Notes: generated by a model from the sequence alone, not told the origin. 64,000 bases of DNA from an uncultured Geobacter sp. (GCA_903902855.1 CAIUWK010000068.1:74558-138557), one strand, 5' to 3'; shown: positions 20,212-45,863, counted from the first letter of the stretch. Made by a program: numbers and translations.

Positions 20212-21381
20212 ATGAACACCCCCTATTGTGCCGGATTACCGGAGCTTCCCACGGTCTCAGCCGACGCCGTAAAACTGTTTCATCGTGCGATAACGAGTGT
20301 GACGGCGCAAGTGGCCGCCCATCTTGAGAGCCGGCCTGATCTGGACATGTTCACCGGCGGTAATTCGCCGGATCTGCTCCGCGGCATGCTGCGACACCAG
20401 GCGAGGTTCATGCTGATCATCTTCACCGTGGACTCCCCCCAGCAGATTGCATCGTTTCTCCTCTGGAACCATCAGACATCCCAGGCTCAGGGGTTCTCCT
20501 CAGAGTTCTTTGCCCTGCTGCTTGACGCCTGGCGAACCGTCGTCCGTGACCGGTTCACCACCCATGGAGAGGGAGGTGAGCTCCCGTCATTCTATGACTG
20601 GCTGGCTCGATGCCACGAAACAAGCAGCGTTTCCCCCGGTGAAGGGATATATCCTGCTGTTTCCCTCACGCATAATGTCAAGGGGGTGCAACTCCCCTTT
20701 CTCTGGCTGCTGCTGCAAGGAAATTTCAGCAGCTGCCTGCAGTTCAGCAGTTCGTTGATTGAAACCTTGGATGACCTGAGACAGTTTTACCTGAAAGTAA
20801 TCTGGCCTGTATTCTACCGGATAGGTGAGCTCTGGAGTTCCGGCCTGATCTCCGTCGCCGAAGAGCACTTGGCCACGAATCTGGTCAAACGGGTCATGCC
20901 GGTCCTCCTTTCCCGGTTCACCATGAACAGGGTGACTCGTGGAAAGGCCTTGGTTTCCACATCCCCCAATGAGCACCATGAGATCGGCGCCAGGATGGTC
21001 GCCGATTTTTTGGAACTGGATGGCTGGGACGTCATCTACCTGGGGGCCAATATTCCTTCCTGGGCACTTCTTGACATGGTCCAGCGAGAGAAACCTTTCC
21101 TCATCGCCCTCTCCGCTGCCACCGAGATAAACCTCGGCAATATCAGGTACATTATCGACATGATCAGGGGTGACCGACGGCTTCGAGAGACAAAAATCAT
21201 GGTTGGCGGTTACGCGTTCTGTCATAGCTGGCTGCATTGGCAGCAGATCGGCGCCGATGGCCATGCTCCCGATGCCCAGGGGGGCGCCCTGATCGCAGCG
21301 GAGTGGTGGTCGGCGCGGCAGGGTGACAAATCACAGGATGAAAGTAACCACTCAGGTTTGAGACTGAAGGCTGAAGGTTAA
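20212..21381 (+). CDS. Cobalamin (B12)-binding domain protein, CarH-like sensor module without a DNA-binding domain
   Basis: AAGGAG precedes the ATG at 20212 (the ORF opens at 20143). Four-helix cap motif W-x9-EH (ELWSSGLISVAEEHLAT) and Rossmann B12 motif ExHxxG (NEHHEIGARMV...GWDVIYLG). The N-terminal ~200 aa are unassigned. Confidence 0.75.
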   Translation: MNTPYCAGLPELPTVSADAVKLFHRAITSVTAQVAAHLESRPDLDMFTGGNSPDLLRGMLRHQARFMLIIFTVDSPQQIASFLLWNHQTSQAQGFSSEFFALLLDAWRTVVRDRFTTHGEGGELPSFYDWLARCHETSSVSPGEGIYPAVSLTHNVKGVQLPFLWLLLQGNFSSCLQFSSSLIETLDDLRQFYLKVIWPVFYRIGELWSSGLISVAEEHLATNLVKRVMPVLLSRFTMNRVTRGKALVSTSPNEHHEIGARMVADFLELDGWDVIYLGANIPSWALLDMVQREKPFLIALSAATEINLGNIRYIIDMIRGDRRLRETKIMVGGYAFCHSWLHWQQIGADGHAPDAQGGALIAAEWWSARQGDKSQDESNHSGLRLKAEG

Positions 21382-21403
21382 ACCCGTCAACCTGAGTAGT
21401 TAC
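21344..21403. repeat. Heptamer-arm hairpin element, short copy E (inverted relative to copies A-D)
   Basis: GTAACCACTCAGGTT..GACTGAAGGCTGAAGGTTAAACCCGTC..AACCTGAGTAGTTAC, with terminal inverted repeats. It overlaps the last 12 codons and the stop of the B12-binding gene. Confidence 0.75.
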
Positions 21404-24607: not shown

Positions 24608-27037
24608 TCATGACCGCCGGGTCAGCCGGAGCGAATTTCCCACCACGCAGAGGGAGCTAAGAGCCATGGCCGCTGCGGCATGGATGGGGGTGAGTCGCCC
24701 GGTCATGGCCAAGGGGATTCCCACCAGGTTGTAGATGAAAGCCCAAGCCAGGTTCTGACGGATGACCCGCATGGTCCGCACCGCCAGCTGGTGGGCGATG
24801 ACGATCCGTCCCAGATCAGGTTTCGTGAGGATCAGCGCCGAGCTCTCCAGTGCAATGTCGGTACCACCGGCCATGGCGCACCCCACGGAGGCGGCGGAGA
24901 GAGCCGGGGCATCGTTGATCCCGTCACCCACCATGAGAACCGGCGCCCCCTCCCCTTCCCTATTCCCCACAAACTCCGCCTTGTCAACGGGAAGCATCCC
25001 CCCCCGGGCGTCACCGATCCCTACCTCTTGGGCGATCTCCCGCAGATGTTCGGGCCTGTCCCCGGAGAGAAGGGTCACGGCAATTCCCTGTTTCACGAAA
25101 TAGGCCGCCACCGCCGCCGCCTCGGGACGGAGCCGATCCTGCAAAACTATCAACCCGAGATACTCCCCCTGACGGGCCACATGGATGACGCTCCCCGATG
25201 CCGGGGGAGCTTCTGAAGGGAGGAGAATCCCATGGTCACGGAGAAACCGCGCCGTGCCCGCGACCACCTCCACCCCCTCCATCATGGCGGCGACACCCCC
25301 TCCCGGAGTCGTCACCACCCCTACGGCAGGGACCAGGGGATGGATTCCTCGTATTCCGGCATAGGCCATGATTCCCCTGGCCAGAGGATGGGCCGAGCCT
25401 GACTCAACCCCGGCAGAGGTGACCAGGAGCAGCTCCGGGGAGACCCCCGCGGCAGGGCAAAGCGCCACCACCTGGGGGCGCCCCAGGGTGAGGGTCCCGG
25501 TCTTATCGAACACCACCTGCCTGATCCGGCTCAGCCGTTCCAGGATCTCCCCCCCCCGGAAGATGATCCCGCTCCCGGCAGCAGCGCCGGTCCCTGCCAC
25601 CACCGCGGTGGGGGTGGCCAGTCCCAGGGCGCAGGGGCAGGCGATGACCACCACGGCCAAAGCTCTCATGAGTGCCATGCCAAAGGGAAACCCGGCAAAG
25701 AACAACAAGCCGAAGGTGAGGAGCGCCAGCAGCAGCACCGCCGGGACAAAGAGAGCCGAGAGCCGTTCCGCAAGGTTCTGGATGGGGGCGCGGCGCTGCT
25801 GGGCCTCCTCCACCAGCCGGGCAATGCGGGCGATGAAGCTATCGGAGGCCGGTCGTGCCACCCGGACCCGGACGGAGGCCAGGAGGTTGATGCTCCCGGC
25901 GATGACCGGATCACCGCTCTTCTTGGCCACGGGAAGAGACTCGCCGGTGGCCGGGGATTCATCCACCTCGCTCTCCCCTTCCAGCAACACGCCGTCCACG
26001 GGAAACCGCTCCCCCTCCCGGACCAGCACGATGTCGCCGGGGATCAGCTCGGAGCTCTCCACGGTTTCCGGCACATCCCCCCGGAGACGAAGCGCCTGGG
26101 CCGGGGCGCAGGCAAGGAGCCGCTCCACCCCGGCCGAGGCGCGATGTCGGGCCGAGAGCTCCAGGAGCCGGCCGGCCAGGATGAGGGTAACGATCATGGC
26201 CGCGGTCTCGAAATAGACCTCACTCCCGTTGACCAGGGCGTAGATGCTGTAGAGGTATGAGGAGAGAGCCCCCACCGTGATGAGAAGATCCATCCCCGGA
26301 GCCCGGTTGGCGATGCTCCGCCAGGCTCCGGCCAGAAACGGCCACCCGGAGTAGAAGAGCACCGGCGTCGTCACTGCCAGGGAAAACCACTGCATGACCG
26401 CTTTCATGGTCTCCCCCATCCCCTGGACGAACCCGGCATAGAGAGCCAGGGAGGAGGCCATGAGCTGCATGGTGAGGAAGAGGGAGGTGCCGAAGCGGAG
26501 GAGGAGCTCTTTTCTCTGGAGGGCGTAGGCGGCTTCGGCAACTCCGAAGGAGTAGGGTCGGGGGCGGTAACCGGCGGCGGAGATACGCCGGAAGATGGCG
26601 GCAGGGGTGGTCAGGGAGGGATCAAAGTGAAGTCTGGCCCGGCCGGTGGCGTAGTTCACCCGAACCTGACTGGTTCCGGGGAGGCCGGCGATGATCTTTT
26701 CCATGAGCCAGACGCAGGAGGCGCAGCGAATACCGTCGATGAGGATATCCAGGGCAAAGGTGTCACCCGCCGGCTGTACGAAACGGGCGAGATACTCCTC
26801 GGAGAACTCATCCTGGTACGCCCCGCTCCCCAGCCCCTTGTCGCGCCACTCCCGGCGCCGGTAATAGTCGTCAAGTCCGGCGCCGGTGATCAGCTCATAG
26901 GCGCCAAGACACCCCTTGCAGCAGAAGAGCCGCTCCACGCCGTCGGAGCGATCCACCACAGTGGCGCCGGGCAGGAGCTCCGCCTCGCAGTGGAGGCAGC
27001 GCCGGGGCGCTTCGGTTACGGCAAGAGTGTCATTCAC
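24608..27037 (-). CDS. ccoI: Copper-translocating P1B-type ATPase, CcoI/FixI type
   Basis: 809 aa. N-terminal Cys-rich CcoI-type domain (CLHCEAEL...CCKGCLGAYE), CPC motif (ACPCALGLATP), DKTGTLT, GDGINDAP. Genomic association with ccoNOQP-ccoG-fixH. Confidence 0.85.
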   Translation of the reverse strand: MNDTLAVTEAPRRCLHCEAELLPGATVVDRSDGVERLFCCKGCLGAYELITGAGLDDYYRRREWRDKGLGSGAYQDEFSEEYLARFVQPAGDTFALDILIDGIRCASCVWLMEKIIAGLPGTSQVRVNYATGRARLHFDPSLTTPAAIFRRISAAGYRPRPYSFGVAEAAYALQRKELLLRFGTSLFLTMQLMASSLALYAGFVQGMGETMKAVMQWFSLAVTTPVLFYSGWPFLAGAWRSIANRAPGMDLLITVGALSSYLYSIYALVNGSEVYFETAAMIVTLILAGRLLELSARHRASAGVERLLACAPAQALRLRGDVPETVESSELIPGDIVLVREGERFPVDGVLLEGESEVDESPATGESLPVAKKSGDPVIAGSINLLASVRVRVARPASDSFIARIARLVEEAQQRRAPIQNLAERLSALFVPAVLLLALLTFGLLFFAGFPFGMALMRALAVVVIACPCALGLATPTAVVAGTGAAAGSGIIFRGGEILERLSRIRQVVFDKTGTLTLGRPQVVALCPAAGVSPELLLVTSAGVESGSAHPLARGIMAYAGIRGIHPLVPAVGVVTTPGGGVAAMMEGVEVVAGTARFLRDHGILLPSEAPPASGSVIHVARQGEYLGLIVLQDRLRPEAAAVAAYFVKQGIAVTLLSGDRPEHLREIAQEVGIGDARGGMLPVDKAEFVGNREGEGAPVLMVGDGINDAPALSAASVGCAMAGGTDIALESSALILTKPDLGRIVIAHQLAVRTMRVIRQNLAWAFIYNLVGIPLAMTGRLTPIHAAAAMALSSLCVVGNSLRLTRRS

Positions 27038-27044
27038 GGTGTCG

Positions 27045-27352
27045 TTATACCCGACTTACTCTTTCGAGCAGAAGATATTCCAAATCTCGACGTCCATCGA
27101 TGACCGACAGGACAAAAACATTTTCCTCTTCGATGCAATACATGATCCGCCATGGTGTCGGGAGCAGTTCCCGGTACTGGAATATGCCCTGTTTCTGCAG
27201 TTCCGGTACGACACGCCCCCGTTACGCGGACCGGTTGAATGTCGTCTTGCAGATTTATTGACCACCTCCTGACCGAATTCAATACCATACTCAGCCTTGT
27301 ACAGCAAGGTTTCACCCTACAAACGCAGGGTAAATTTGTTCTCCGCATATTC
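27045..27352 (-). pseudogene. ParE/RelE-family toxin relic (in-frame TAG plus frameshift)
   Basis: Own three-frame reading: ..EYAENKFTLRL*GETLLYKAEYGIEFGQEVVNKSARRHSTGPRNGG, then after a shift at a 5-nt C run (27216-27220) RVVPELQKQGIFQYRELLPTPWRIMYCIEEENVFVLSVIDGRRDLEYLLLERVSRV*. The C-terminal half is classic ParE. The stop lies 8 nt upstream of the ccoI ATG. Confidence 0.55.
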
Positions 27353-27680
27353 ACTAGACCCCCCAGGAACATGAATTTTTTGTCCTGCGCAAGTAATCGA
27401 AGACTAGTCGCACATTCCAGATAGGGGAGATGGTGATAAGTGACTTCTGTTGTCGGCGCTAATTCAGGGAGCGGGTGTGGTGATTTTTTGTCGGGTTGTC
27501 TGTACGTGTTGACCACCGATGCCGATGGCCGGTTTACCTTGCCGACTATGGATTTTCTGGATGCTTTCGTACAGATCAAAGCGGCAGATGGTAAGGACTT
27601 TGCGACGGTCAACCTGCCGATTAAGATGTTTGAAACGGGGGAACTGGCGGTAGTGCTGCAGCCAAGGCAGTAGGGTTTTA

Positions 27681-28097
27681 CTACACGAACCCCAACTCAA
27701 TCCGTTTGCCGAACACCCGGGCAATCTTTTCGAGGGTCTTAACGGTAGGATTAGCTTTGCGTGGATTTTCCAGGCGTTGATAGACCTGATAGGAGATGTT
27801 GAGCTGTCGTGCCACTTCGGTCTGCGGTCGATCGGCACGCAGGGTGCGCAACATCATGGCAACAGCGATATGCGGAGCTACGGGGATATTGTATGTGTTT
27901 TTACTTAGAATGGCAGAAGGAGATGGAATGACGAAATTTCGTTCAAAATCGGATTCGATACAACCGTTCAGCGCCTCTTCGGCATTATGCAGAGCCTCTT
28001 CCAATGTAGCTCCATAGGTCATGACGTTCTCTAAGTCGGGAAAACTGGCCAGATAGCCGTCGTCCTGTTTTTCTATAAGCACCGGATATGCCAGCAT
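27681..28097 (-). CDS. hicB: HicB family antitoxin with C-terminal HTH
   Basis: 138 aa. N-terminal HicB fold pattern (YPVLIEKQDDGYLASFPDL...GATLEEALHNAEEAL) and C-terminal XRE-like HTH (QTEVARQLNISYQVYQRLE). Confidence 0.85.
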   Translation of the reverse strand: MLAYPVLIEKQDDGYLASFPDLENVMTYGATLEEALHNAEEALNGCIESDFERNFVIPSPSAILSKNTYNIPVAPHIAVAMMLRTLRADRPQTEVARQLNISYQVYQRLENPRKANPTVKTLEKIARVFGKRIELGFV

Positions 28098-28102
28098 AAT
28101 TA

Positions 28103-28288
28103 TTACTCCTTTATTCCCGCTTGTTTAAGAATGCCGTGAACAAGTCCTTTGGGCAGATCTGTTGTGCCGTGTGTCGGAATGGGAACCGAGCGGCACCCCT
28201 CGCGGATCATGATGTGATGGCTGCCGGAGATACGATCAAGCACCCAGCCATGTTCCTCAAGAATCTTTTTGAGCTGTTTGCCGGTCAT
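28103..28288 (-). CDS. hicA: HicA family mRNA interferase toxin
   Basis: Start taken at MTGKQLKKILEEHGW (Met16 of the ORF). GSHHIM...PIPTHG..DLPKGLVHGILKQAGI is typical of HicA. Lies 5 nt upstream of hicB. Confidence 0.85.
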   Translation of the reverse strand: MTGKQLKKILEEHGWVLDRISGSHHIMIREGCRSVPIPTHGTTDLPKGLVHGILKQAGIKE

Positions 28289-28532
28289 GAAATAATTTAT
28301 ACAGCATAAATGATGTGTGTCAAGAAATACCATTGACCACTTGGAGGAATTGATCCGCTGGCTGATACCAAGGTGACTGCTTACAGGGGTGGAGGGTCAG
28401 GCTTGGACGGACCGTCCAAGATTGCGCGTTGCAGAATGTGGCGAGACAGGAAGGGCTTGAAAGAAATGGGGGATTGGGGACGGGTTAAAATGGTGACGGT
28501 CTGGATGTTCCAGTAAGTGAATATGTGAACTA

Positions 28533-28582
28533 CGTCCCGTCCGCCCCGTCCGCCCCGCGTCCCGTCCGCCCCGTCCGCCCGC
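28533..28582. repeat. C-rich tandem array (CCGTCCGCC-like units)
   Basis: CGTCCCGTCCGCCCCGTCCGCCCCGCGTCCCGTCCGCCCCGTCCGCCCGC. Confidence 0.7.
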
Positions 28583-28670
28583 AGTCCAGCTAAAACCGCA
28601 CTTCATTAGTTTTTTTGATATAAAAATAGTGTTTTATTTTGGCCTAAAATGTTATTTTTCAGCAAGTTGA

Positions 28671-29057
28671 ATGCCCGTTTCGGCATGCCGAAATGAGTAC
28701 AAAAAAGTGCTGACGGCTCTATTGTCTGAATGTGAAACGCCGGCTCTCACTGACACCGGTGCCCACCCTACCCTTCACGGCCACATACTCTACCTCGGGT
28801 TCCTGACATTGATTGGGCATAAGCTTGACAATACCGATGCTTCAATAATCGGCGTGAACCGCACCTACAAGGATCTGGTCACCGGTGAGCAGTTGACGAT
28901 AAAGGAGAGTTTCATCGAAAGTCTGACTCATGACAGCTATGTGATCCAGATTCCGAGTCTGGCTAGCAGGAAACACACCTGTTTACCCCTTCGAGTCGAC
29001 GGTAGAGTGTTCTGCCGGGATTCTTCACTGAAAGGAGTGTATAGGGTTATTTGGTGA
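28671..29057 (+). CDS. Hypothetical protein (weak call)
   Basis: 128-aa ORF with no recognisable SD. The start codon sits beside the TTTCGGCATGCCGAAA palindrome, and the 3' end overlaps the convergent RES gene by 11 nt. No family recognised. Confidence 0.25.
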   Translation: MPVSACRNEYKKVLTALLSECETPALTDTGAHPTLHGHILYLGFLTLIGHKLDNTDASIIGVNRTYKDLVTGEQLTIKESFIESLTHDSYVIQIPSLASRKHTCLPLRVDGRVFCRDSSLKGVYRVIW

Positions 29058-29772
29058 GGGATATTTTTTGTGGCGAGCAGTAAATGTTTTGCAGGAGAAC
29101 ACCTCGCTCCCGTTCAACCCTCAGTGCGCCATTGGCCAGAGGATTGAAAATATATGTAAGAAAGCAATGGTCTCTGGCATCACTTAACCTCGATTGTTTG
29201 AAAATCGCCCCGTTGGTTCCGCTACATCGTGCCGACCTGTACATGACTCCGTTCTGTCCTTGCCGTTGAAGATAACTACCAAGAGCATTGGAAAACGTGT
29301 AGTCGTCGGGGTCTACCAGAGCGTGATACTCAATCTCCTTGCCAAGCAGTGAAACAAGGATGCCGTGACACTTCGCTTTGATCACGCGGCGTTCCGCCAC
29401 TATGTCTGTTGATTCATTCGGGAACGAAGCGAGGACGAAACGACGCCAGTGATAAGCGGATTCATGGATGGTCGTTTCAAGGTCCAGCGAGCCGTACCAA
29501 ACACCATAGCGAATGCCGTCACTAAACCGGGTCCGCTGCCAGTTCGCTTCTATAAAAGGAAATGCGATGGCGGCGCCATAATCAAAGGGCCTTGAGAGCA
29601 GGCTTTCTTCGGTCGCCACGCTGTCCCGGTTCTCGGCTGCGTGAGCAATGGCGTAATCGTCTCCGTCGTCTCCCAGGTCATCAAACAGATCCTGAGAAAT
29701 GCGGAGGCCTTTGATGTTACGTAACAAGTATTCGTCAAAATCAACGATGTCCGTGAGTAGTTTCGAGTACAT
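29047..29772 (-). CDS. RES-domain toxin (NAD+-targeting, MbcT/ParT-like family)
   Basis: 241 aa. R..E..S signature context (RFSDG..YGVWYGS...TTIHE...GVMYRSARC). Lies directly downstream of its Xre-like partner. Confidence 0.85.
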   Translation of the reverse strand: MYSKLLTDIVDFDEYLLRNIKGLRISQDLFDDLGDDGDDYAIAHAAENRDSVATEESLLSRPFDYGAAIAFPFIEANWQRTRFSDGIRYGVWYGSLDLETTIHESAYHWRRFVLASFPNESTDIVAERRVIKAKCHGILVSLLGKEIEYHALVDPDDYTFSNALGSYLQRQGQNGVMYRSARCSGTNGAIFKQSRLSDARDHCFLTYIFNPLANGALRVERERGVLLQNIYCSPQKISLTK

Positions 29773-30180
29773 CTATCGGTCACATTCGAAATCAAGATAG
29801 CGTCTGATCGCCAACAATCCTTCATACCCGCTCCGCATGATCTCCAAGGGGGGCTTGCCGGTAAAAGTCGCGTTGGGCGCAGTGACCCACGTATAAACTA
29901 GATCCCGATTATGGGGGAACATGATGCGAAGAGCCTTGTGGATGCCCAACAGGTGACCGACTCTGCCGATGAGGTCGACGCTGTTTTCCAGGGGAGAACC
30001 TTTCCGATAGCGAGTCAACGTCATGCGGGAGGTGGGAGCGAGGCCAAGCAAGGCACACTGGTCCGACTTTGAGAGTCCCCAATGGTCAAAAAGTCGGGCA
30101 ATCATCTTGGCGAGGCTTTCTCGTGAGGCTTTGGAGCCAAGGTCAACAAGGTGGTTTTCTTGAGCCGCGGCGGCGAGCAT
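29773..30180 (-). CDS. Xre/MbcA/ParS-like antitoxin (DUF2384-type toxin-binding domain)
   Basis: 135 aa. C-terminal W...PN..F.GK.PLE......G...L..YL pattern (YTWVTAPNATFTGKPPLEIMRSGYEGLLAIRRYL). Adjoins the RES gene with no gap. Confidence 0.85.
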   Translation of the reverse strand: MLAAAAQENHLVDLGSKASRESLAKMIARLFDHWGLSKSDQCALLGLAPTSRMTLTRYRKGSPLENSVDLIGRVGHLLGIHKALRIMFPHNRDLVYTWVTAPNATFTGKPPLEIMRSGYEGLLAIRRYLDFECDR

Positions 30181-30326
30181 GGATATCTCTCCTGAACAAT
30201 ATTTTTTGTTGCATAAATAGTATCAAAAGATATACAGATGGGCAAGGGGAAACTTCATTGTCCGTAAATCGCACAGATTGACATTGATATAAACTTTGCA
30301 CGTGAGCTGTCTACAGAGGACACCGC

Positions 30327-30470
30327 AACATTCTGGTAACCGGTCCCACTGGCGCCGGCAAGTTACCTTGCCGGCGCTCTGGTCCAGAAAGCCTGTCGAC
30401 CGGCAGATCCACCAGGAAGTCGGTGAGTTCTTCTCTTCGGGTCATGAGGTAGGCTGATGCCACACTTCGC
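30327..30470 (+). pseudogene. IstB-like (IS21 helper) P-loop ATPase fragment, frameshifted
   Basis: Own translation NILVTGPTGAGK, then after a shift YLAGALVQKACR. This is a Walker A region only, colliding with the truncated integrase on the opposite strand. Confidence 0.4.
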
Positions 30471-30995
30471 CAGCACCTGGTCGAACTGCTCCTTCAAACG
30501 TGGCGTCATTCCCCTGAATCCCCAGAGAACATACTCCGACTTGATCTGCTTGGGCCACCGGCTGAGCGGTCCATAGAGGTCGTCTCCGATGGGGATAACC
30601 CGCAAACGACCACGCTCCCGATTCCCCGCCACGATGACCTTCCTGTCGAGGTCCACGCTATCCCAGGTCAGCCTGAATATCTCGCCGAGCCGCATGCCGG
30701 TGTTCAGTGACATCCTGACGAGCATTTGAAGCTGGGGATGAACGGAACACGCATCAACGAGGTCCAGCCATTCCGTGATTTGCAGGTAGCGGAGATTCTC
30801 GTGACGTGGCCGAAGCATCTCGGCAAGTCCCACCATTGAACTGACCGCCACACTCACCAGTTCCCACCGCTCGCACATACTATATATATGCTTCAGGACG
30901 TCCACGTGGTGGTCGCAGGTCTGGGGAGAGACGATGGCAAGGGCTTTCACCTGATACTCCTCGATGTCGGCAAGGTCGATGCCGTCGAGGTTCAT
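30455..30995 (-). pseudogene. Tyrosine recombinase (phage integrase family) fragment
   Basis: MNLDGIDLADIEEYQ...LVRMSLNTGMRLGEIFRLTWDSVDLDRKVI covers the core-binding region and first catalytic Arg box. The HxxR and Tyr boxes are absent. The listed 300-aa ORF extends N-terminally only by reading through the G-rich repeat array. Confidence 0.6.
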
Positions 30996-31011
30996 CTTGC
31001 CGAAGTGGGCA

Positions 31012-31109
31012 GTAGGGTGGCGGGTCGTAGGGTGGCTGGTCGGGGGTGGCGGGTGGCGGGTCGGGCGGGTGGCGGGTCGGGGTGGCGGGTCGCGGGGTGG
31101 CGGGTCGGG
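31012..31109. repeat. G-rich tandem array (GGTGGCGGGTCG-like units, about 8 copies)
   Basis: GTAGGGTGGCGGGTCGTAGGGTGGCTGGTCGGGGGTGGCGGGTGGCGGGTCGGGCGGGTGGCGGGTCGGGGTGGCGGGTCGCGGGGTGGCGGGTCGGG. Confidence 0.8.
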
Positions 31110-31195
31110 CTTCCAAGTTGCCAAGATTGCGCGTGGGCGGGTCGAAGGAGGGGGGCAGGGAAAGCTCGGGTCGGGTTTGCATTTGTATAAGCTAT

Positions 31196-31350
31196 CGACA
31201 AATTCGATCAACCAAAACCAAGTATCAAATGGCATTATTGCGGCAAAACAGGCTGTTTCACCCAACTTCGGCGCGCCGAAGATTGGCGGAACCTACCGGA
31301 AAACAACAATACACCTTTTAATAATTCGAAATATGCGCAGTATCATTTAG
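31196..31350. repeat. Conserved non-coding module, copy 1 (homologous to 41640-41791)
   Basis: Alignable by eye with few substitutions: GGCAAAACAGGCYGTTTYACCCAACTTCGGC(GC/AT)GCCGAAGATYGGCGNAACCTACCGGAA..AACAATACACCTTTTAATAAT(T)CGAAATATGCGC..ATCATTTAG. Confidence 0.8.
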
Positions 31351-31514
31351 CTGGAAAACAAGGAATCACTGCTGAGGCATCATCATTAGTTGGCTGGGGT
31401 GAGACGCGAATACGTGTACCCATAGCGGCGGATACCCATGAAACTGTGGTCAAGCAGGGAAAGAAAAAAGGAGAAGCGGTGGAGAGGATAATCGTGGGTC
31501 TGTTCATAGATGCA

Positions 31515-31555
31515 GGAAAAGGCTATTTCCTTGAATTCAATAAAAAAATAGCCTC
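31515..31555 (-). terminator. Putative intrinsic terminator after the HigBA-like pair
   Basis: The minus strand has a 9-bp stem (AGGCTATTT/AAATAGCCT) followed by TTTTCC, about 30 nt past the antitoxin stop. Confidence 0.4.
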
Positions 31556-31585
31556 TTCCTTTTCGGCGTCCGTGTTGCTAGCTCG

Positions 31586-31861
31586 CTAAGCCACTCGTAC
31601 CTCAAGATGCTTGCCTAACGCCATGGCAATGTTACGTAGCGTTGAAAGTCGGATATCGTCGGCGTGATTTTCAATTCGTGAAATTGCCGACTTTCTGGTG
31701 TGAATACGATTTGCCAGCTCTTCCTGGGTTATTCCTGCCTGCTCCCGGGCTTGCCGGAGCATAGCGCCGATTTTGAATTCTTCATATCCAGTGTCAAAAG
31801 ATTCGGCAAATTCTACAGACTGTTTTTTGCGTTTCTCAATATACCGTCCGAGATCATCCAT
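31586..31861 (-). CDS. XRE-family HTH antitoxin (HigA-like)
   Basis: 91 aa. [27 protein letters not shown]. Overlaps the upstream toxin-like ORF by 8 nt. Confidence 0.8.
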
Positions 31862-32078
31862 TATTAATCACCTCCCTGCCTTGATGCTCGCGCTTTCTGG
31901 TTTCCGCCAGTTCAATTTCACGTCGAGGAGTCTTTTGTGTCTTTTTCTGAAAACCGAGGTCTCTTACCAACTTCATAACCCACAATATTTTTTTGACTTG
32001 GGCATCGGAAAGCGTGTCGAGGAATTCTTCAACAGGCGAAACACCAGTGGTCGTTTTGAAAAAATCTATCCGTCTCAT
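31854..32078 (-). CDS. HigB/Gp49-like (RelE superfamily) toxin, apparently truncated
   Basis: 74 aa. N-terminal [33 protein letters not shown] matches the Gp49/DUF891-type toxin N-terminus. The C-terminal half is short and divergent. Confidence 0.55.
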
Positions 32079-32080
32079 GC

Positions 32081-32113
32081 CACTGATGTTAACATATCAG
32101 TGAACCTAGTCAA
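32081..32113 (-). promoter_or_regulatory. Promoter with overlapping inverted-repeat operator for the HigBA-like pair (probably a leaderless mRNA)
   Basis: Minus strand reads TTGACT - 16 nt - TAACAT - 7 nt - ATG. The imperfect inverted repeat CACTGAT..GTTAAC..ATCAGTG (32081-32102) spans the -10 element. Confidence 0.45.
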
Positions 32114-32208
32114 GAAAATTGACCGGTCTGCCGAGCTTTTCCGCGACCGTCTCTATTCCCGCCTGCCATCCCACCACACATATGAAATGGATATGCATCA
32201 GCACAGGA

Positions 32209-32257
32209 GGGGTGGAGGGTCAGACTTGAGGGGTGGAGGGTGGAGGGTCAGACTTGG
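32209..32257. repeat. G-rich direct repeat GGGGTGGAGGGTCAGACTTG (two copies; a third at 28386-28405)
   Basis: GGGGTGGAGGGTCAGACTTG A GGGGTGGAGGGTGGAGGGTCAGACTTGG. Position 28386 reads GGGGTGGAGGGTCAGGCTTG. Confidence 0.75.
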
Positions 32258-32371
32258 GTCCTGTTGTTTGTGTGTGTGGGGGGGGGTGGAGGTAGAGTAG
32301 GAAAGAGGGCGGTGCCTGGCTTGTGTCCTCTCATTGTTGGGGGACGGACCTCCATGTCCAGAGCAAGGAGT

Positions 32372-32830
32372 TCACCGCATCACCGTCATTCTGCCGTTCA
32401 TGGTGTCGGCGCCGCGCCGGAAGAGCCAGCCGGCCTTGATGACGGAACCGTCCGCCGGGATCAGAGGGACGCAGTAGACCCCCGGTGCCTCGATTCCGCA
32501 GGTAAGCCCCCTGGTCGCTCGCCCCGCCCCTTCCACCGTGACGGTGAGTTCCCCCCCCTCCACCGGAGCGCCGTTCCGGTCGATGACCCGGAGTTCCAGC
32601 CGACCGTTTCCATAGAGCGGCTCGGCTCGCCATCCCAGGCGAGCCGCGGCCCCGGCGGCATCAACCGGCGCATAGAGGAGCCCCTGATTGTAGTAATCCC
32701 GGTCAACGACCCGGCTCACCCCTCTGGCCGCCTTGATGAGGGAAAAGGTCATCCCTGCCAGAAAAATAGCTATCATCATGAGGAGGCCGTAGAGCCAGAT
32801 CTTGCCACCATGTGGCGCACGTGATTTCAT
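32372..32830 (-). CDS. FixH family protein (cbb3 assembly)
   Basis: 152 aa. N-terminal TM helix followed by a beta-rich domain. Lies directly downstream of ccoG. Confidence 0.7.
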   Translation of the reverse strand: MKSRAPHGGKIWLYGLLMMIAIFLAGMTFSLIKAARGVSRVVDRDYYNQGLLYAPVDAAGAAARLGWRAEPLYGNGRLELRVIDRNGAPVEGGELTVTVEGAGRATRGLTCGIEAPGVYCVPLIPADGSVIKAGWLFRRGADTMNGRMTVMR

Positions 32831-32856: not shown

Positions 32857-34071
32857 TTATTTAACCAACAGTGTCATCTCCGCCTCGGCCAGCTGCTCCC
32901 CTTCTTGCAGCAGTCGGAGCTTCAGTTTTTCCGGGGCTGCCGGTGCCGGCGTCACCCTGACCATGAAATCCACCCGGCGGTTTTCGTTGGCGGCAACCTT
33001 GATCCGCTCCGTCGGCCCCAGCAGTTCAATTTTCTGTCCCGCTCCGCCGCTCACCCGTATTCCGTAGAGCGCCGGGACACGGGAACGGTTTTCCAGATAG
33101 GCGGTATAAAAATTGACCACCCCGCCATCGGGAAGCCTTCTTACCGTCCCATCCCCCCCTCGACTGACCTTGATGGTCCCCTGGGAACGGTGGAGCGTGG
33201 CGAAAAGGAACATCCCGGAGAGAGCCATGATGAGCAGCATCACGAGCAGGGAGCGGGGATTCACCGGCCTCCCCCCCCCTGCGCTGCGTCGGCCGAAGGT
33301 GTACTGCATGATCCCCGGTTGGTTGAGACGGTTGAGTACGCCACGGCAGGCGTCCAGGCAGCGGCCGCAGTTGATGCACTCAACCTGGAACCCTTTCCTG
33401 ATGTCGATGCCGGTGGGACAGACCCGGGTACAGGAGTTGCAGCGGATACAGCGGTGGGCCTGGGTGGGATCAAACTCCAAGGTCAGGGTGTTCACATCCA
33501 TGGCCATGAGCTGTATCCGGCCATAGGGGCAGATCGCCTTGCAGAAATACCGCCTGATGAAGGTCAGGTCGACCCAGACGAGACCCCCCACCGAGAAGAG
33601 GGTGATACCGGCGACTAACCCCAGCTCTCCCCCCAGGAGGCGTCGAAGATAGTCGACCGGGGGAATGAAGTACCAGATCAGGTTGGAAGCCACCAGAAAC
33701 GCCAGGAGCGCCGGAGCAAGATAACGCGCGGCAGCGGCAACGGAACTCTGACCGAGACGCTTCTTGATTCTCCGCTCCAGAGCCTCCAGAAGATCGGTGA
33801 GGGTGGATTGGGGACAGAACCAGCCGCACCAGACCCGTCCGAAGAGCATGGTCACAAAGAGAAAGATGAACATGAAGAGGAGGGAAATGAGAAGAACGAG
33901 GTAGAACTCCTCGATCCTGATGGCTGCGCCGAAAAAGTAAAGGGTGCGGGAGGATGCGTCCAGCCGGAGAAGTGACTCTCCCCCCACCCGCACAAAGGGG
34001 ATGAACAGGAGGAGCAGGGTGGAGAGCCACTGAACGGTTTCTCGTTTCCAGGCAAGACGGGTCTGTTGCAT
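32857..34071 (-). CDS. ccoG: Cytochrome c oxidase accessory protein CcoG/FixG (4Fe-4S, cupric reductase)
   Basis: 404 aa. TM helices, ferredoxin motifs CIRCNSCTRVCP and CINCGRCLDAC, and a C-terminal Ig-like domain. Confidence 0.85.
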   Translation of the reverse strand: MQQTRLAWKRETVQWLSTLLLLFIPFVRVGGESLLRLDASSRTLYFFGAAIRIEEFYLVLLISLLFMFIFLFVTMLFGRVWCGWFCPQSTLTDLLEALERRIKKRLGQSSVAAAARYLAPALLAFLVASNLIWYFIPPVDYLRRLLGGELGLVAGITLFSVGGLVWVDLTFIRRYFCKAICPYGRIQLMAMDVNTLTLEFDPTQAHRCIRCNSCTRVCPTGIDIRKGFQVECINCGRCLDACRGVLNRLNQPGIMQYTFGRRSAGGGRPVNPRSLLVMLLIMALSGMFLFATLHRSQGTIKVSRGGDGTVRRLPDGGVVNFYTAYLENRSRVPALYGIRVSGGAGQKIELLGPTERIKVAANENRRVDFMVRVTPAPAAPEKLKLRLLQEGEQLAEAEMTLLVK

Positions 34072-34073
34072 CC

Positions 34074-34562
34074 TTACTTCAGGGAAAGAAGATAGGTGAC
34101 GATACCTTCAAGCTGCTCATGACCGAGTTCCTTGCCGAAACCGGGCATGCCGCCGGGACGGCCGTTGGCAATACTCTCCAGGATGGCGGCCTGGCTCTTG
34201 CCGTATTTGAACTCACCTCTGGTCAGATCAGGACCGATCCCCCCCTTGGCGTCCGCTCCATGGCAGGCGACGCAGCGCTCGCCGAAGATCTTCTTCCCCG
34301 AAGCAAGGTAGGCGGCCGGATCGCTCTTCTCCCCCCCCTTGGCTGGCGCCGACTTCTCCTTCAGCTCGAACTCCGCCGATTTGGCCGCAGCGATCTTCTG
34401 CTTCTGGGCAAACTCCTTGCCGGAACTCCAGCCGCTGAAGAGGTAATACCCCATGAAAAGCACTCCCCACACCGCCAGACAGCCGAAGAGAATACGGAAT
34501 ATCAGCGGGGAGCGGTTACCGTCATCACGGTATTTGATCCCGTCAAAATCATTTTCAGCCAT
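34074..34562 (-). CDS. ccoP: cbb3 oxidase subunit CcoP-like, monohaem
   Basis: 162 aa. FixP_N-like start (DFDGIKYRDDGNRSP), one TM helix and a single CVACH haem motif with GGMPGF. Confidence 0.7.
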   Translation of the reverse strand: MAENDFDGIKYRDDGNRSPLIFRILFGCLAVWGVLFMGYYLFSGWSSGKEFAQKQKIAAAKSAEFELKEKSAPAKGGEKSDPAAYLASGKKIFGERCVACHGADAKGGIGPDLTRGEFKYGKSQAAILESIANGRPGGMPGFGKELGHEQLEGIVTYLLSLK

Positions 34563-34720
34563 TACTTCCTCCCTTTCAGGTCGTCATCATCCAGCATCCG
34601 ATATTTGGGGCTTTCCATCCGCTCCTTCCGCTTGCCGCTGTAGGTCCTGACGACAATCAGGGCAAAGATGAGGAAGAGGAGCACGGTTATCCCCAGATAA
34701 AAGATGGATGCCGCCACCAT
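34562..34720 (-). CDS. ccoQ: cbb3 oxidase small subunit CcoQ/FixQ
   Basis: Not in the ORF track (52 aa). Own translation MVAASIFYLGITVLLFLIFALIVVRTYSGKRKERMESPKYRMLDDDDLKGRK*. The start lies 1 nt after the ccoO stop, with a TAATG overlap with the ccoP start. Confidence 0.6.
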   Translation of the reverse strand: MVAASIFYLGITVLLFLIFALIVVRTYSGKRKERMESPKYRMLDDDDLKGRK

Positions 34721-34721: not shown

Positions 34722-35615
34722 TTACTTCTCCCCTTTGCGGGATGAGATGTAGCTGATCACCTTCCAGACCTTCTCCTTGCCGAGCGTATCGCCAAAGGCC
34801 GGCATCCCCAGGCGATCAAGCCCCTGATAGATGGTAGTGAAGATCTCCCCCTCGGTTTTCTTCAATTCGGCCAGGGGGACGCCGATATCCCCCTTCAGAT
34901 CTTTGCCGTGACACTGGGCACAATTCTCTTCATAGAGCTTCTTCCCCTCAACACCCCCCGCAGCATTTCCCGCGAATGGATTTTTGAGATCCCCCACCAG
35001 AGGCCCCGCCACCGCTGCCTTGCGCCAGGGGATATCGTTCCCCAGCTTCTGCAGGTAGGCTACCATGGCGTCCAGCTCCGTTTTTCCCTTCACCGCGTCC
35101 AACTCTCCCTGGGTATAGGGGAAACCCAGGGCCTTCATCTTCCTCTCGGTGATGGAACTGTCCAAGGGCTGTTTCAAGAAGGCGTAGCTGGGCATATTTG
35201 ACTTGGGGACCATGCTCTGGGGATCGACCATATGCTTGTAGTGCCAGGCACCCGGATACTTGCCGCCGATGCGGGCCAGGTCGGGACCGGTCCTGCGGGA
35301 ACCCCAGAGATGCGGCTGGTCATAGACGAATTCCCCCACCTTGGAGTAGCCGTCCGTGGAACCGGGGGCATACCGGGCCACATCGGCCACCAGGGGGCGC
35401 ACCGTCTGGGTGTGGCAGTTGTTGCACCCTTCACGGATATAAATGTCCCGTCCTTCCAACTGCAGCGGGGTATAGGGCTTGACCCCCGCGATCTTTTGCG
35501 ACGGATCGTTAATCCATTTGAAGGGGGCGATCATGGTCACGGTGGTGCCGATCATGATGACCACCGCCGCCAGCAGCAGCAGGATTACCGGTTTTTTCTC
35601 CAGAAGATCAAACAT
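34722..35615 (-). CDS. ccoO: cbb3 oxidase subunit CcoO with an extra C-terminal monohaem cytochrome c domain
   Basis: Start taken at MFDLLEKKP. CcoO core (GCNNCHTQ..PHLWGSRRTGPDL..H) plus a second domain with CAQCH...GMPAF. Confidence 0.85.
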   Translation of the reverse strand: MFDLLEKKPVILLLLAAVVIMIGTTVTMIAPFKWINDPSQKIAGVKPYTPLQLEGRDIYIREGCNNCHTQTVRPLVADVARYAPGSTDGYSKVGEFVYDQPHLWGSRRTGPDLARIGGKYPGAWHYKHMVDPQSMVPKSNMPSYAFLKQPLDSSITERKMKALGFPYTQGELDAVKGKTELDAMVAYLQKLGNDIPWRKAAVAGPLVGDLKNPFAGNAAGGVEGKKLYEENCAQCHGKDLKGDIGVPLAELKKTEGEIFTTIYQGLDRLGMPAFGDTLGKEKVWKVISYISSRKGEK

Positions 35616-35628
35616 GGCGTATCCCCCC

Positions 35629-37044
35629 TCAAGCCGCGCCGGTAGCGCGGGCGGTTTCACCGGTGGCGCTGCCGCTCTGGACCGTCTTGATGATGTTGTA
35701 GATAAAGATGAAGAGACTCACCAGGTAGATGACCCCGCCGCCGGCCCGCATGTGCCAGTAAGGGTACATCTCGGTCAGGGTCTCCATGAAGCTGTAATGG
35801 AGGCTGCCGTCGGCGTTGGTGGCGTGAAGCATGGTGGCCTGCTGGACCCCGGCAATCCACATACTAATGGAGTAGATGAGCTGACCGGTCACCGCCAGCC
35901 AGAAGTGAGCGTTGGCCAGCTTCACGCTATGGAGTTCGGTGTTGTAGAGACGGGGGATCAGATAGTAGATCCCGGCAAAGAGGATCAGCGACACCCACCC
36001 CAGCGCCCCCATGTGCACATGCCCCGGCACCCAGTCGGTGTAGTGAATGAAGGCCGAGAAGGTTCGGACCGCCTGGGCTGGCCCCTGGAGGGTCTGAAGA
36101 CCGTAAAAGGTGATGCCGAAGATGAAGAATTTAGCCAGATAGTTATCCCGCATCTGATGCCACTGGCCGTTCATGGAAAGGTAGCCGTTGATGACCGAGG
36201 CCCAGGAAGGGGCGATGAGCATGATGGAGAAACCCATGGCCAGGGTCTGAACCCAGTCCGGGATCGGTGTCCAGAGGAGGTGGTGGGCCCCGGTCCAGAG
36301 GTACATGAAAATGAGACTCCAGAAGGCAATGATTCCCATGCGGTGACTATAGATGGGGACCCCGGTGGACTTGGGGAGAAAATAATAGAAGATGGCCAGG
36401 GGGGGAGTGGTGAGAACCATGGCCACGGCGTTATGGCCATACCACCACTGAACGTTGGCATCATTGGCCCCGGCAAAGGCGGAGTACGACTTGGTGAGCG
36501 ACACCGGGATGCCGGCATTATTCACCAGATAGAGGACAGCGACCCCCACCAGGGTGGCGATGATGTACCAGAGGGAGACATACATCTGCTCCTCTTTGCG
36601 CTTCATGATGGTCATGAGGATATTCACCGTAAAGATAACCCAGAGGATTACCACGAGAATATCGATGGGCCACTCCAGCTCGGCGTACTCCTTGGACTGG
36701 TTATACCCCATGAGGAGGGTTACCGCCGCCAGGACGATGACCAGATTGAAGAGCCAGAGCTGGAACCGGGCCAGACCCAAGCTCCAGATGGGGGCCTTGG
36801 TCAGTCGCTGGGTGATGTAATAGAACATCCCCATGAAGCTCCCGATACCCCAGCCGAAGATGGCGGCGTTGGTGTGGAGCGGACGGAGACGGCCGTAGGT
36901 CAGAAACGGCGGGAAATTGAGCTGCGGAAAGACCAGCTGGAACGAGATGAGCACTCCAACCAGCACCGCCACCAGCCCCCAGATGATGCTCCAGAAGAGA
37001 AAACCCTTGGTTACCTCATCGGAGTATCCTGTTTTTACACCCAT
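35629..37044 (-). CDS. ccoN: cbb3-type cytochrome c oxidase subunit I
   Basis: 471 aa, 12+ TM helices. Conserved His ligand contexts (HTNAAIFGW; WTGAHH; HYTDWVPGHVHMGALGW). Confidence 0.95.
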   Translation of the reverse strand: MGVKTGYSDEVTKGFLFWSIIWGLVAVLVGVLISFQLVFPQLNFPPFLTYGRLRPLHTNAAIFGWGIGSFMGMFYYITQRLTKAPIWSLGLARFQLWLFNLVIVLAAVTLLMGYNQSKEYAELEWPIDILVVILWVIFTVNILMTIMKRKEEQMYVSLWYIIATLVGVAVLYLVNNAGIPVSLTKSYSAFAGANDANVQWWYGHNAVAMVLTTPPLAIFYYFLPKSTGVPIYSHRMGIIAFWSLIFMYLWTGAHHLLWTPIPDWVQTLAMGFSIMLIAPSWASVINGYLSMNGQWHQMRDNYLAKFFIFGITFYGLQTLQGPAQAVRTFSAFIHYTDWVPGHVHMGALGWVSLILFAGIYYLIPRLYNTELHSVKLANAHFWLAVTGQLIYSISMWIAGVQQATMLHATNADGSLHYSFMETLTEMYPYWHMRAGGGVIYLVSLFIFIYNIIKTVQSGSATGETARATGAA

Positions 37045-37095: not shown

Positions 37096-37218
37096 GTAAC
37101 TCAGGCTGAAGGCTGAAGAGTATGAGGAAAACCTCTGCAAGATCAATAAAGGTGCCCCATACAAGATGGGTTTAACCTTCAGCCTTCAGTCTTCAGCCTC
37201 ATTACTTGAGTAGTTACC
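37096..37218. repeat. Heptamer-arm hairpin element, copy B (best preserved)
   Basis: GTAACTCAGG CTGAAGGCTGAAG - core (AGTATGAGGAAAACCTCTGCAAGATCAATAAAGGTGCCCCATACAAGATGGGTTTAA) - CCTTCAGCCTTCAGTCTTCAGCC..CTTGAGTAGTTACC. Lies between the Rrf2 stop and the ccoN start. Confidence 0.85.
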
Positions 37219-41273: not shown

Positions 41274-41575
41274 GGCGCGAATCCTAGTCAAATGTAGGAA
41301 AAAATGCAAGGGAAAGGACGAAGAGGAAGAGACATAAGGGGATTATTACTGCACGGCCAAGCGGTTCCAGTCAGTTATGACAGACAGAGGCGCCATCAAT
41401 CTGTTGTGGCGGGTGGCGGCCCGTACTGATCCCACAACCCTAAGTCCACGCATACTGATCCATTCAGCAATTGGGGAGGGACGAAAGGGGGCTGAAAGGT
41501 CATTCAGAAATTGACAAGAGTTATCGCTATTGCTAACGTCAGCCCATGGCCACCAAACAGGACGTGGAAGTCGCC

Positions 41576-41649
41576 GCTTTCGGTTGTTGAATATTCGCCA
41601 AAGCGAGAGGCGAGAGGGTCAGGCTTTCGGTTGTTGAATATTCGCCAAA
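41576..41649. repeat. 27-nt direct repeat x2 (period 47) containing near-palindrome TTGAATATTCG
   Basis: GCTTTCGGTTGTTGAATATTCGCCAAA occurs at 41576-41602 and 41623-41649. Confidence 0.8.
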
Positions 41650-41791
41650 ATCAACAATCCAACGACACCAAACGGCTTTTTCAGGCAAAACAGGCCGTTT
41701 TACCCAACTTCGGCATGCCGAAGATCGGCGTAACCTACCGGAAGATAACAATACACCTTTTAATAATCGAAATATGCGCGGCATCATTTAG
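41640..41791. repeat. Conserved non-coding module, copy 2 (homologous to 31196-31350)
   Basis: See copy 1. Contains the 16-bp perfect palindrome CTTCGGCATGCCGAAG (41708-41723). Confidence 0.8.
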
Positions 41792-41856
41792 GGCAGAAAT
41801 TGAATATCAGCCGAAACGAGAAGAAACAAGCTGGTGGAGATTACGCTCACTCCTCC

Positions 41857-41896
41857 ATAAAAAACCGGCGTCTGGAAGTGATTCCGTGACGCCGGT
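41857..41896 (-). terminator. Intrinsic terminator (minus strand)
   Basis: Minus strand has ACCGGCGTC..GGAA-loop-TTCC..GACGCCGGT followed by TTTTTTAT. Confidence 0.55.
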
Positions 41897-42155
41897 CCTG
41901 GCCAGAGCTGAATTTATGGTGACGCAAGCCGACGAGGATCAGGATTTGTATCGATATGCCTGACCATGCCGCCACCTCTCAGGAATCAATTGATGAGGGG
42001 GTACTTTAGCAGCAAAACCCTTCACTGGCAACCAAATCTTTTAATAAGAAAAATATCCTGATAAATAATTCGGATACGCAAAAGAACACGGGACCGCAGG
42101 GCTTCCAAGGAGCCCCAGACCACCAGGTTCCCAAGTCCCCCTTTGACTCAACTTT

Positions 42156-45724: not shown

Positions 45725-45863
45725 GGTAACTTCAGGTTGATGCGCTGAAGGCTGAAGACCATCAGGAAAACCACTGCAAAATCAGTAAAGGCAATTTATC
45801 CGAGACGGGTTCAACCTTCAGCCTTCAGTCTTCAGTCTTCAGTCTTAATACCTGAGAAGTTAC
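45725..45863. repeat. Heptamer-arm hairpin element, copy C
   Basis: GGTAACTTCAGG..CTGAAGGCTGAAG - core - CCTTCAGCCTTCAGTCTTCAGTCTTCAGTCTT..CCTGAGAAGTTAC. Lies between the EVE-gene stop and the FKBP start. Confidence 0.85.

Follow-up and report, generated by a model that had tools for sequence, protein, structure and literature searches.

A probable relic genomic islet carrying toxin-antitoxin modules lies between fixH and ccoI in a cbb3 oxidase cluster of an uncultured Geobacter species

In model proteobacteria the genes for the cbb3 oxidase and its assembly factors form the cluster ccoNOQP-ccoGHIS, in which CcoI, a protein with two N-terminal metal sites, supplies copper to the oxidase (PMC8475189). 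In a different context, toxin-antitoxin (TA) systems are known to stabilise genomic islands and integrative and conjugative elements, examples being SXT, SGI1 and islands of Shewanella (PMC2654960, PMC8978831, PMC5006074). Here we describe a locus in which these two kinds of system meet. In particular, within a 64,000-nt stretch of DNA from an uncultured Geobacter sp. (GCA_903902855.1 CAIUWK010000068.1:74558-138557; referred to as the window, with all positions counted within it), fixH and ccoI are separated by a 5.3-kb block that contains TA genes and occupies positions 27035-32371. The genes from ccoN to ccoI are the same, and in the same order, as those of the model cluster, but the cluster of the window is broken by this 5.3 kb, it is without ccoS, its CcoO has an extra haem c domain, and its CcoP is a short mono-haem protein.

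We consider it quite probable that the block is a decayed, immobilised remnant of horizontally acquired DNA that entered exactly at a 4-nt stop/start overlap (GTGA) between fixH and ccoI. Gene identities were taken from a listing of open reading frames (ORFs) and from Pfam, with NCBIfam as a second library. The two genes that border the block are as follows.

32372 to 32830, minus strand: fixH, the last gene of the native ccoNOQP-ccoG-fixH run (Pfam FixH, E = 4.6e-12)
24608 to 27037, minus strand: ccoI, intact, encoding a CopA2-type copper ATPase (Pfam ATPase-cat_bd, HMA, E1-E2_ATPase and Hydrolase (HAD); NCBIfam copper P-type ATPase)

A first-pass annotation of this DNA had placed an island that splits the cbb3 genes at 27045-32330; the location and the splitting stand, and the right border moves to 32371, directly past the fixH stop codon. 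It had also described about 5.3 kb of AT-richer DNA between the cco genes and ccoI, all on the same strand, and here the GC content and the ORF and Pfam evidence agree with it. The GC content of the island is 0.513, compared with 0.587 in the rest of the window (z = -3.2), and in tetranucleotide usage it lies farther from the rest of the window than any other 5.3-kb segment does (z = 5.7), so that the windowed GC and k-mer comparison that had been proposed identifies a non-native composition. Moreover, the GC content at third codon positions (GC3) is 0.44-0.64 for the TA genes and 0.71-0.82 for the cco genes, proS and a histidine kinase gene; a fragment of an integrase gene within the island has a host-like GC3 of 0.74. 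The block is thus compositionally foreign. Every recognisable gene in it is on the minus strand, as is the operon. (Rfam identified no RNA family within the island. A match to the ZMP/ZTP riboswitch at 27630-27729, plus strand, overlaps the 3' end of hicB and was set aside as probably due to chance, its score being 26.6 bits against a gathering score of 39, with E = 0.23.)

The arrangement of these genes in related bacteria was obtained by scanning with CcoG, one genome per species, which yielded 80 loci with which the proteins of the window were then compared by tblastn. In the loci of the three closest species (L001-L003; 80, 78 and 71% identity in CcoG and 88-91% in CcoN) the reading frames of fixH and ccoI overlap in the sequence GTGA, and FixH of the window is 68% identical to that of L001 and L002. 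Across the 45 loci, from several orders, that have ccoI downstream on the same strand, the distance from the end of ccoG to the start of ccoI is between -27 and 1918 nt; in the window it is 5820 nt. None of the island proteins had a tblastn match in any of the 80 loci. The synteny comparison called for by the first-pass annotation therefore finds the two genes linked in this lineage and overlapping in the closest species, with the island genes carried by none of the 80 loci, and the ancestral state is one in which fixH overlaps ccoI.

A look-up of the exact FixH sequence showed that at least nine assemblies, drawn from different samples, belong to the species of the window. Island genes higB and higA come next after fixH in all seven of the same-species assemblies that extend past fixH, and ccoI is adjacent to fixH in none of the seven. 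Over 6 kb, one of the strains (L082) shares 99.98% identity with the window, and two others (L081 and L083) are about 98-99% identical, with insertions and deletions in the tandem arrays and the toxin genes described below. Independent assemblies of different samples have these junctions in common. Because all seven of the extending assemblies carry the island, and given the identities between strains and the relatives that are without it, the island is not an artefact of assembly; the insertion is specific to one freshwater Geobacteraceae species and fixed there.

In the relatives the junction reads ...ATGACGGTGATGCC GTGA CC..., where TGA is the stop codon of fixH and GTG, preceded by the ribosome-binding motif GGTGAT, is the likely start codon of ccoI. 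The corresponding sequences at the two ends of the island are these.

32372 to 32390, minus strand: left copy of a probable flanking direct repeat; this is the tail of native fixH, AATGACGGTGATGCGGTGA, and contains the ancestral GTGA stop/start (14-15/17 match to the fixH tails of L001-L003)
27016 to 27034, minus strand: right copy of the flanking direct repeat, a degenerate fixH tail AATGACACTCTTGCCGTAA that now encodes CcoI residues 2-7 (from an in-register alignment)

The window reads CGACACC GTG AATGACACTCTTGCCGTAA CC... (27044-27014) on the ccoI side. With this sequence kept in the register of the ccoI alignment, which is free of gaps, 11 of the 17 nt before the old GTGA agree with the ancestral fixH tail (binomial p = 6e-4 to 3e-3), whereas the next 28 nt upstream match the ancestral sequence at 8-9 positions, which is the level expected by chance. 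The match in register followed by the fall to chance level argues that about 17-19 nt of the fixH tail are imperfectly duplicated at both ends of the island, and the presence of the tail at both ends would mean that fixH and ccoI both stayed complete. The right copy of the repeat is identical in strain L081. An alignment of the island ends revealed no terminal inverted repeats.

On the ccoI side the ancestral GTG start codon has become GTA and the GGTGAT motif is gone. The new start is a GTG at 27037 that belongs to the island-edge sequence and lies 21 nt after an in-frame stop codon; no other start would retain the first CxxC metal site, and this one adds six residues, MNDTLA, ahead of the first Cys motif. 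(Inspection of the sequence before this GTG found no obvious Shine-Dalgarno sequence.) Both N-terminal metal sites are present in CcoI of the window, and by Pfam ccoG, ccoH/fixH and ccoI are all present and intact. Between strains ccoI differs by nine synonymous and four non-synonymous codons, and CcoI is 76.6% identical to that of L002, comparable to the value for CcoG (78%). Thus, from both the codon differences and a degree of conservation equal to that of CcoG, ccoI is still under constraint.

The block itself is a mosaic. It is composed of three type II TA modules, each self-contained and circulating on its own among related bacteria, together with a doubly truncated integrase gene, a scrap of the insertion sequence IS21 and several gene fragments.

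31854 to 32078, minus strand: Gp49/HigB-like toxin gene with an in-frame internal deletion of 45 codons (Pfam Gp49, profile positions 69-89, 30.6 bits)
31586 to 31861, minus strand: higA, encoding the Xre-type helix-turn-helix (HTH) antitoxin partner of the Gp49 toxin (Pfam HTH_3, E = 3.6e-13; antitoxin-type HTH matches in NCBIfam are below cut-off)
30455 to 30995, minus strand: tyrosine recombinase fragment, the middle ~180 residues of a phage-type integrase of ~350 aa (Pfam Phage_integrase, positions 10-123 of 172)
30326 to 30398, plus strand: frameshifted scrap of istB (IS21 helper ATPase), ~73 nt from the Walker A region (24.7 bits to Pfam IstB_IS21 after hand repair)
29773 to 30180, minus strand: Xre/MbcA/ParS-type antitoxin gene (Pfam Xre_MbcA_ParS_C, E = 1.1e-9, and Xre-like-HTH)
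29047 to 29772, minus strand: RES-domain toxin gene that appears intact (Pfam RES, E = 3.1e-19; homologues are named 'RES family NAD+ phosphorylase' by NCBI)
28671 to 29057, plus strand: orf128, probably a fragment of a 291-aa gene
28103 to 28333, minus strand: hicA toxin gene, 61 aa from the ATG at 28288 (Pfam HicA_toxin, E = 8.2e-18)
27681 to 28097, minus strand: hicB antitoxin gene, HicB fold and HTH (Pfam HicB_lk_antitox and HTH_3)
27440 to 27673, plus strand: orf77, a short ORF on the opposite strand with no family match, probably a gene fragment
27045 to 27221, minus strand: possible C-terminal relic of a ParE/RelE-type toxin gene, 58 codons and a stop, preceded by an in-frame stop (Pfam ParE_toxin, E = 0.0098)

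The six TA domains all exceed their Pfam gathering scores, although the Gp49 match in the window is only a partial one, and in each pair the toxin and antitoxin genes are adjacent. The pairs resemble described Xre-RES (MbcTA/ParST type), HicAB and Gp49(HigB-like)-HTH systems in their domains, gene order, tight spacing and conserved residues. They differ from the described Xre-RES and Gp49-HTH systems in that the C-terminus of the RES protein is replaced and the Gp49 toxin is internally deleted in this strain, and their activity in the window is predicted. Pfam thus confirms the HicAB and RES-Xre pairs named by the first-pass annotation; the third pair that it had named, a HigBA-like one, is a Gp49-HTH pair whose toxin is without 45 codons here, so its description of the TA modules as intact holds for hicAB and xre-RES, or two of the three pairs, in this strain. 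Its ParE relic does match Pfam ParE_toxin, over profile positions 46-88 of 89, but at 16.9 bits against a cut-off of 23. Neither orf77 nor orf128 has a match in Pfam or NCBIfam, and positions 28842-28966, within orf128, are 80% identical to part of a 291-aa gene beside hicB in two other loci (L110 and L111).

The RES protein keeps all 55 columns that are invariant in a 12-sequence alignment, being replaced only in its last ~14 residues, and it has no substitutions between strains. The xre-RES module, including its promoter, shares 78% DNA identity with copies in unrelated loci, and the homology is confined to 30252-29092; these relatives sit in other TA clusters with HigBA, MazE-PIN, AbiE or Uma2. 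Among such clusters are three on chromosomes of Desulfuromonadales (L107-L109), which have the xre-RES module in common with the window (76-78% protein and 78% DNA identity) but which, unlike the island, lie between unrelated housekeeping genes, are without G-rich arrays and split no operon. Similarly, HicB has 815 homologues, many of them in Geobacteraceae at 73-94% identity, and the homology of hicAB to other copies (82-86%) is confined to 28329-27676. The island is thus a set of separately circulating modules and not one recognisable element.

The integrase fragment aligns with residues ~100-280 of integrases of ~350 aa at 33-37% identity and is without the C-terminal part that bears the catalytic His/Arg/Tyr residues. 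A G-rich array (array B, below) stands in place of its 5' part and the istB scrap in place of its 3' part; because both ends are lost, the integrase cannot be active. The first-pass annotation was therefore right to call the recombinase truncated, which it is at both ends. Its full-length relatives have Int_N/SAM-like N-terminal domains and a full catalytic domain and are of the phage type. The IstB fragment, also named in that annotation, is 81% identical to istB on the Trichlorobacter lovleyi SZ plasmid NC_010815 (E = 4e-8), although it amounts to just ~73 nt and is frameshifted. (An IS21 element as such was considered and rejected, since the island has no more of istB than these 73 nt and its ends bear no terminal inverted repeats.) Matches in a plasmid database were limited to the istB scrap and a 152-nt HTH stretch; a phage collection was not searched.

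G-rich tandem arrays, which the first-pass annotation had noted, accompany the modules; three of them, all hypervariable, lie at module borders.

32209 to 32256, plus strand: array C, built of GGGGTGGAGGGTCAGACTTG units, with the fixH stop on one side and the higB promoter on the other; the number of units varies between strains
31015 to 31134, plus strand: array B, GGGTGGCGGGTCG units (tandem part, 31015-31109) and CCAAGATTGCGCGT, abutting the integrase fragment where its 5' part is truncated; the copy number differs greatly from strain to strain
28386 to 28580, no strand assigned: junction block outside the conserved hicAB module, comprising site A (GGGGTGGAGGGTCAGGCTTG, a 9-bp palindrome and CCAAGATTGCGCGT) and an (CCCGTCCGC)n array, with a C-rich tandem array at 28533-28580

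All four occurrences of the G-rich motif GGGGTGGAGGGTCAGRCTTG in the window fall inside the island, against 0.05 expected by chance. Taken with CCAAGATTGCGCGT, the motif marks out blocks A, B and C as three related junction blocks; none of the loci with xre-RES relatives contains the motif. Two of the three arrays mark breakpoints, array B at the 5' truncation of the integrase and the (CCCGTCCGC)n array at one end of a deletion in one strain. In that strain (L083) 415 nt are gone that contained site A, the hicA promoter and three quarters of hicA. Strain L081 holds, inside its (CCCGTCCGC)n array (L081 ~14440-14470), a 23-nt copy of the 3' end of hicA (ACTTGTTCACGGCATTCTTAAAC), and the L083 deletion runs exactly between the two copies of this 23-nt repeat that are still present in L081 (L083 14362-14369; window 28147-28562). 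We read the G-rich arrays as recombination-prone junction DNA. (Note that the L083 contig continues past codon ~10 of hicB as unrelated sequence, from either a rearrangement or a chimera at the contig end.)

A metagenome-wide scan for the G-rich 20-mer of the island returned 20 contigs, all 20 without island proteins; we regard these matches as due to chance and as uninformative on the arrays. Nineteen of the 20 contigs (L087-L106, JGI metagenome) belong to one AT-rich repeat family, and the two that were inspected (L092 and L094) contain plant-like retroelement and ARM-repeat ORFs.

Two further toxin genes are damaged in a comparable way. The deletion in the Gp49 toxin gene is a 135-nt in-frame gap present in the window and L082, whereas L081 and L083 keep an intact 119-aa toxin (the L081 allele spans the whole Pfam profile, E = 7.7e-21), and in a metagenome genome unrelated to the window (L110 4874-5422 and L111 984-1532) hicA is internally deleted and hicB is intact. 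Thus, each of the three deletions seen, in the Gp49 toxin gene, in hicA of L083 and in hicA of L110 and L111, hits the toxin and spares the antitoxin, a pattern that would fit addiction logic.

Several features of the island bear on the expression of ccoI. A promoter scan found 14 promoter-like sites in the island, mostly on the minus strand, where 4.2 were expected, among them sites upstream of higB, xre (30226-30198) and hicA (28323-28294; score 10/12). A predicted terminator follows higA.

31514 to 31560, minus strand: hairpin (19-bp stem) and adjoining U-tract immediately past the stop codon of higA, a likely intrinsic terminator (-28.2 kcal/mol)

This hairpin has z = -4.0, with none of 200 shuffled sequences folding equally well, and was also recovered as I2 in a scan for inverted repeats. 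No terminator was predicted on the minus strand between hicB and ccoI. In the most likely picture, transcripts from the cco promoter would mostly stop at the hairpin after higA, and ccoI would be read through from island promoters (those of xre-RES and hicAB), its translation uncoupled from that of fixH. It is accordingly plausible, as the first-pass annotation had proposed, that ccoI is cut off from the operon promoter.

How might such a block have arisen and persisted? Two features by which genomic islands are recognised, absence from the same site in close relatives and a deviating composition, are both found here; a functional tyrosine recombinase is not, as only residues ~100-280 of ~350 remain, and because the integrase is dead the block is a relic rather than an active element. 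By analogy with described islands, it most likely works like, and is, a small genomic islet of the integrase type that is stabilised by TA modules. We suggest that a phage-type integrase would have made the first insertion via an attachment (att) site resembling the fixH tail (AATGACGGTGATGCSGTGA), that further modules would have accreted afterwards, and that an IS21 insertion and deletions would then have killed the integrase. The remnant would persist because its loss would remove the antitoxins while stable toxins (HicA and RES) remain. It is plausible that the TA modules keep the island in place in this manner, and the idea is in line with the deletions observed, all of which remove toxin genes and spare antitoxins.

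The islands SXT with MosAT, SGI1 with SgiAT and Shewanella CGI48 with HipAB are like that of the window in their foreign composition, a tyrosine recombinase, type II TA modules and a lack of the island in sister species (PMC2654960, PMC5006074, PMC8978831); they have a flanking repeat derived from the target gene's 3' end, for which the repeat in the window is a probable counterpart. By comparison, the island of the window measures just 5.3 kb, carries TA genes as its only cargo and has an integrase without both ends. Its target is neither a tRNA nor an intergenic site but a stop/start overlap within an operon, and its stabilisation by TA modules is a prediction.

Some of our findings weigh against this account. 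No intact parent element was found: a word-indexed homologue search with the integrase fragment returned self matches only, and an exhaustive search returned matches of at most 37% identity. The fragment lies 1.3 kb from the fixH end and has a host-like GC3 (0.74), and for these reasons it may not derive from the enzyme responsible for the insertion. When the two island ends were aligned locally without constraint, the result was not significant (p = 0.04 against shuffled sequences and 0.13 against native controls), so that it is the in-register test alone that carries the flanking repeat. The promoter and terminator roles are consensus or fold predictions only, and the three toxin deletions are anecdotal as support for TA-driven retention.

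The alternative that best survives is that there was no site-specific integration, and that a tolerated spot gathered TA modules and fragments singly, by illegitimate or homology-assisted recombination, with the integrase fragment as a passenger. We think this possible, if on balance unlikely. The sharp homology borders of the TA modules, which elsewhere occur in different company, are what piecemeal gathering would produce, as are the range of GC3 between modules (0.44 to 0.74), the recombination-prone G-rich arrays at their borders and the weakness of the end repeat. However, the probable duplicate of the fixH tail that is found in register at the ends is typical of att-type integration, an integrase relic is present, and the modules are all co-oriented with the operon, all of which favour an initial integration event.

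A second alternative concerns why the island is there still. Rather than through addiction, it may have been retained through co-option, with autoregulated TA promoters driving ccoI and copper delivery being controlled apart from the oxidase structural genes. The strong hairpin and U-tract after higA, the promoter-like sites upstream of xre and hicA, the lack of a predicted minus-strand terminator from hicB to ccoI, an intact and constrained ccoI, and the presence of the island in every same-species assembly that extends past fixH would all be in keeping with this idea. But the scans are purely predictive, the new ccoI start is without a recognisable Shine-Dalgarno sequence, and fixation is equally explained by drift or addiction, and we judge co-option to be improbable. 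A more specific proposal, in which cco transcription would end at the higA hairpin, ccoI would be under the autoregulated promoters of xre-RES and/or hicAB, and quadruplex-prone G-rich arrays would act as hot spots at which modules are shuffled or deleted, seems to us less probable again.

That the TA genes are co-oriented cassettes with repeats between them, and that 'integron integrase' models appear among the weak NCBIfam matches of the recombinase, raised the idea of an integron-like cassette array (CALIN) in which the G-rich repeats would be attC sites and the recombinase would be a decayed IntI. This reading is very improbable and was rejected. In particular, the inverted-repeat scan found no attC-like imperfect palindromes of 60-140 nt at the module borders, the G-rich sites lie outside the conserved modules, the closest full-length relatives of the recombinase are phage-type integrases with Int_N/SAM-like domains, and the NCBIfam scores are far below their cut-offs (21 bits against 265 for the integron-integrase model). 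Least credible of all is the formal possibility, for which nothing else speaks, that the island genes are ancestral and the relatives underwent a precise loss of them, or that the locus is an assembly chimera, given that ccoG and ccoI lie within 1.9 kb of each other in 45 loci across several orders, that composition and GC3 are foreign, that the fixH tail is probably duplicated and that the junctions are repeated across independent assemblies from different samples.

The first-pass annotation had reported that no ccoS-like ORF follows ccoI, and this is borne out. The stop codon of ccoI is 24 nt from that of a convergent histidine kinase gene, and a CcoS profile built from ten CcoS ORFs of the fetched loci had no match in the window, in L002 or in L003, whereas it identified CcoS directly 3' of ccoI in 16 more distant relatives (E at most 1e-18). 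Because ccoS is also missing from the island-free sisters L002 and L003, the island is not the cause of its absence; the missing ccoS is a trait of the clade, and its loss or relocation predates the island or is independent of it. In L002 (14075-14990) the space between ccoI and the convergent gene for a CHASE-PAS histidine kinase contains two hemerythrin-like genes, where the window has only the 24 nt.

The native genes upstream of the island form a minus-strand run, rrf2, ccoN, ccoO, ccoQ, ccoP, ccoG and fixH, from 37695 down to 32372 (ORF listing and Pfam).

35629 to 37044, minus strand: ccoN (Pfam)
34722 to 35660, minus strand: ccoO (Pfam)
34562 to 34720, minus strand: ccoQ, a native gene
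34074 to 34562, minus strand: ccoP (Pfam)
32857 to 34071, minus strand: ccoG (Pfam)

CcoO has 312 aa and comprises a FixO domain and an extra C-terminal cytochrome c domain, and CcoP is a mono-haem protein of 162 aa; this layout is also found in relatives. The tail of CcoQ, SPKYRMLDDDD, is very similar to the CcoS tail GPKYRMLDDDD of relatives (L007, L009-L011, L015-L019 and others). Copies of a REP-like dispersed repeat, ~110 nt long and sharing the core ACGGGTTTAACCTTCAGCCTTCAGTCT, occur at 1657-1787, 21354-21403 (inverted), 37107-37216, 45746-45855 and 47637-47746, and one of them lies between rrf2 and ccoN, in what is likely the cco promoter region.

The island also shares a repeat with another part of the window.

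31226 to 31350, no strand assigned: 125-nt non-coding repeat with a second copy at 41669-41791 (87% identity, E = 1.5e-36)

The repeat has no significant fold. Its second copy is in the 846-nt intergenic region between ispG and Uma2 (41300-42150, especially 41576-41649 and 41669-41791), which also contains two perfect 27-nt repeats 47 nt apart and G-rich stretches, GGCGGGTGGCGG and GAGGGTCAGGCTT, that resemble the island motif; this region may itself be a further relic of an element of this type. A second patch of low GC content (0.41-0.50) at 10700-12100 contains two minus-strand ORFs, one resembling a carbon-nitrogen hydrolase (10834-11580) and one resembling hemerythrin (11626-12087), both identified by eye.

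Judged by its sequence, the block is a degraded genomic island of an ordinary type that reveals no new kind of system and no new principle; it is slightly unusual in its target, a stop/start overlap inside an operon, in the rescue of ccoI by a new start codon and in the hypervariable G-rich arrays at its module borders. It nevertheless offers a natural case in which foreign DNA landed on a 4-nt stop/start overlap in the assembly operon of a respiratory enzyme with neither gene being destroyed, the downstream gene ccoI having been rescued by a new start codon at the edge of the island, and it would show how translational coupling and co-transcription can be broken and how the break can be tolerated. 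The strains present in public metagenomes moreover provide a small population-level picture of TA decay in which toxins are lost first. Finally, if the island has indeed been co-opted, this species would have the copper loading of its cbb3 oxidase tied to the regulation of toxin-antitoxin genes.

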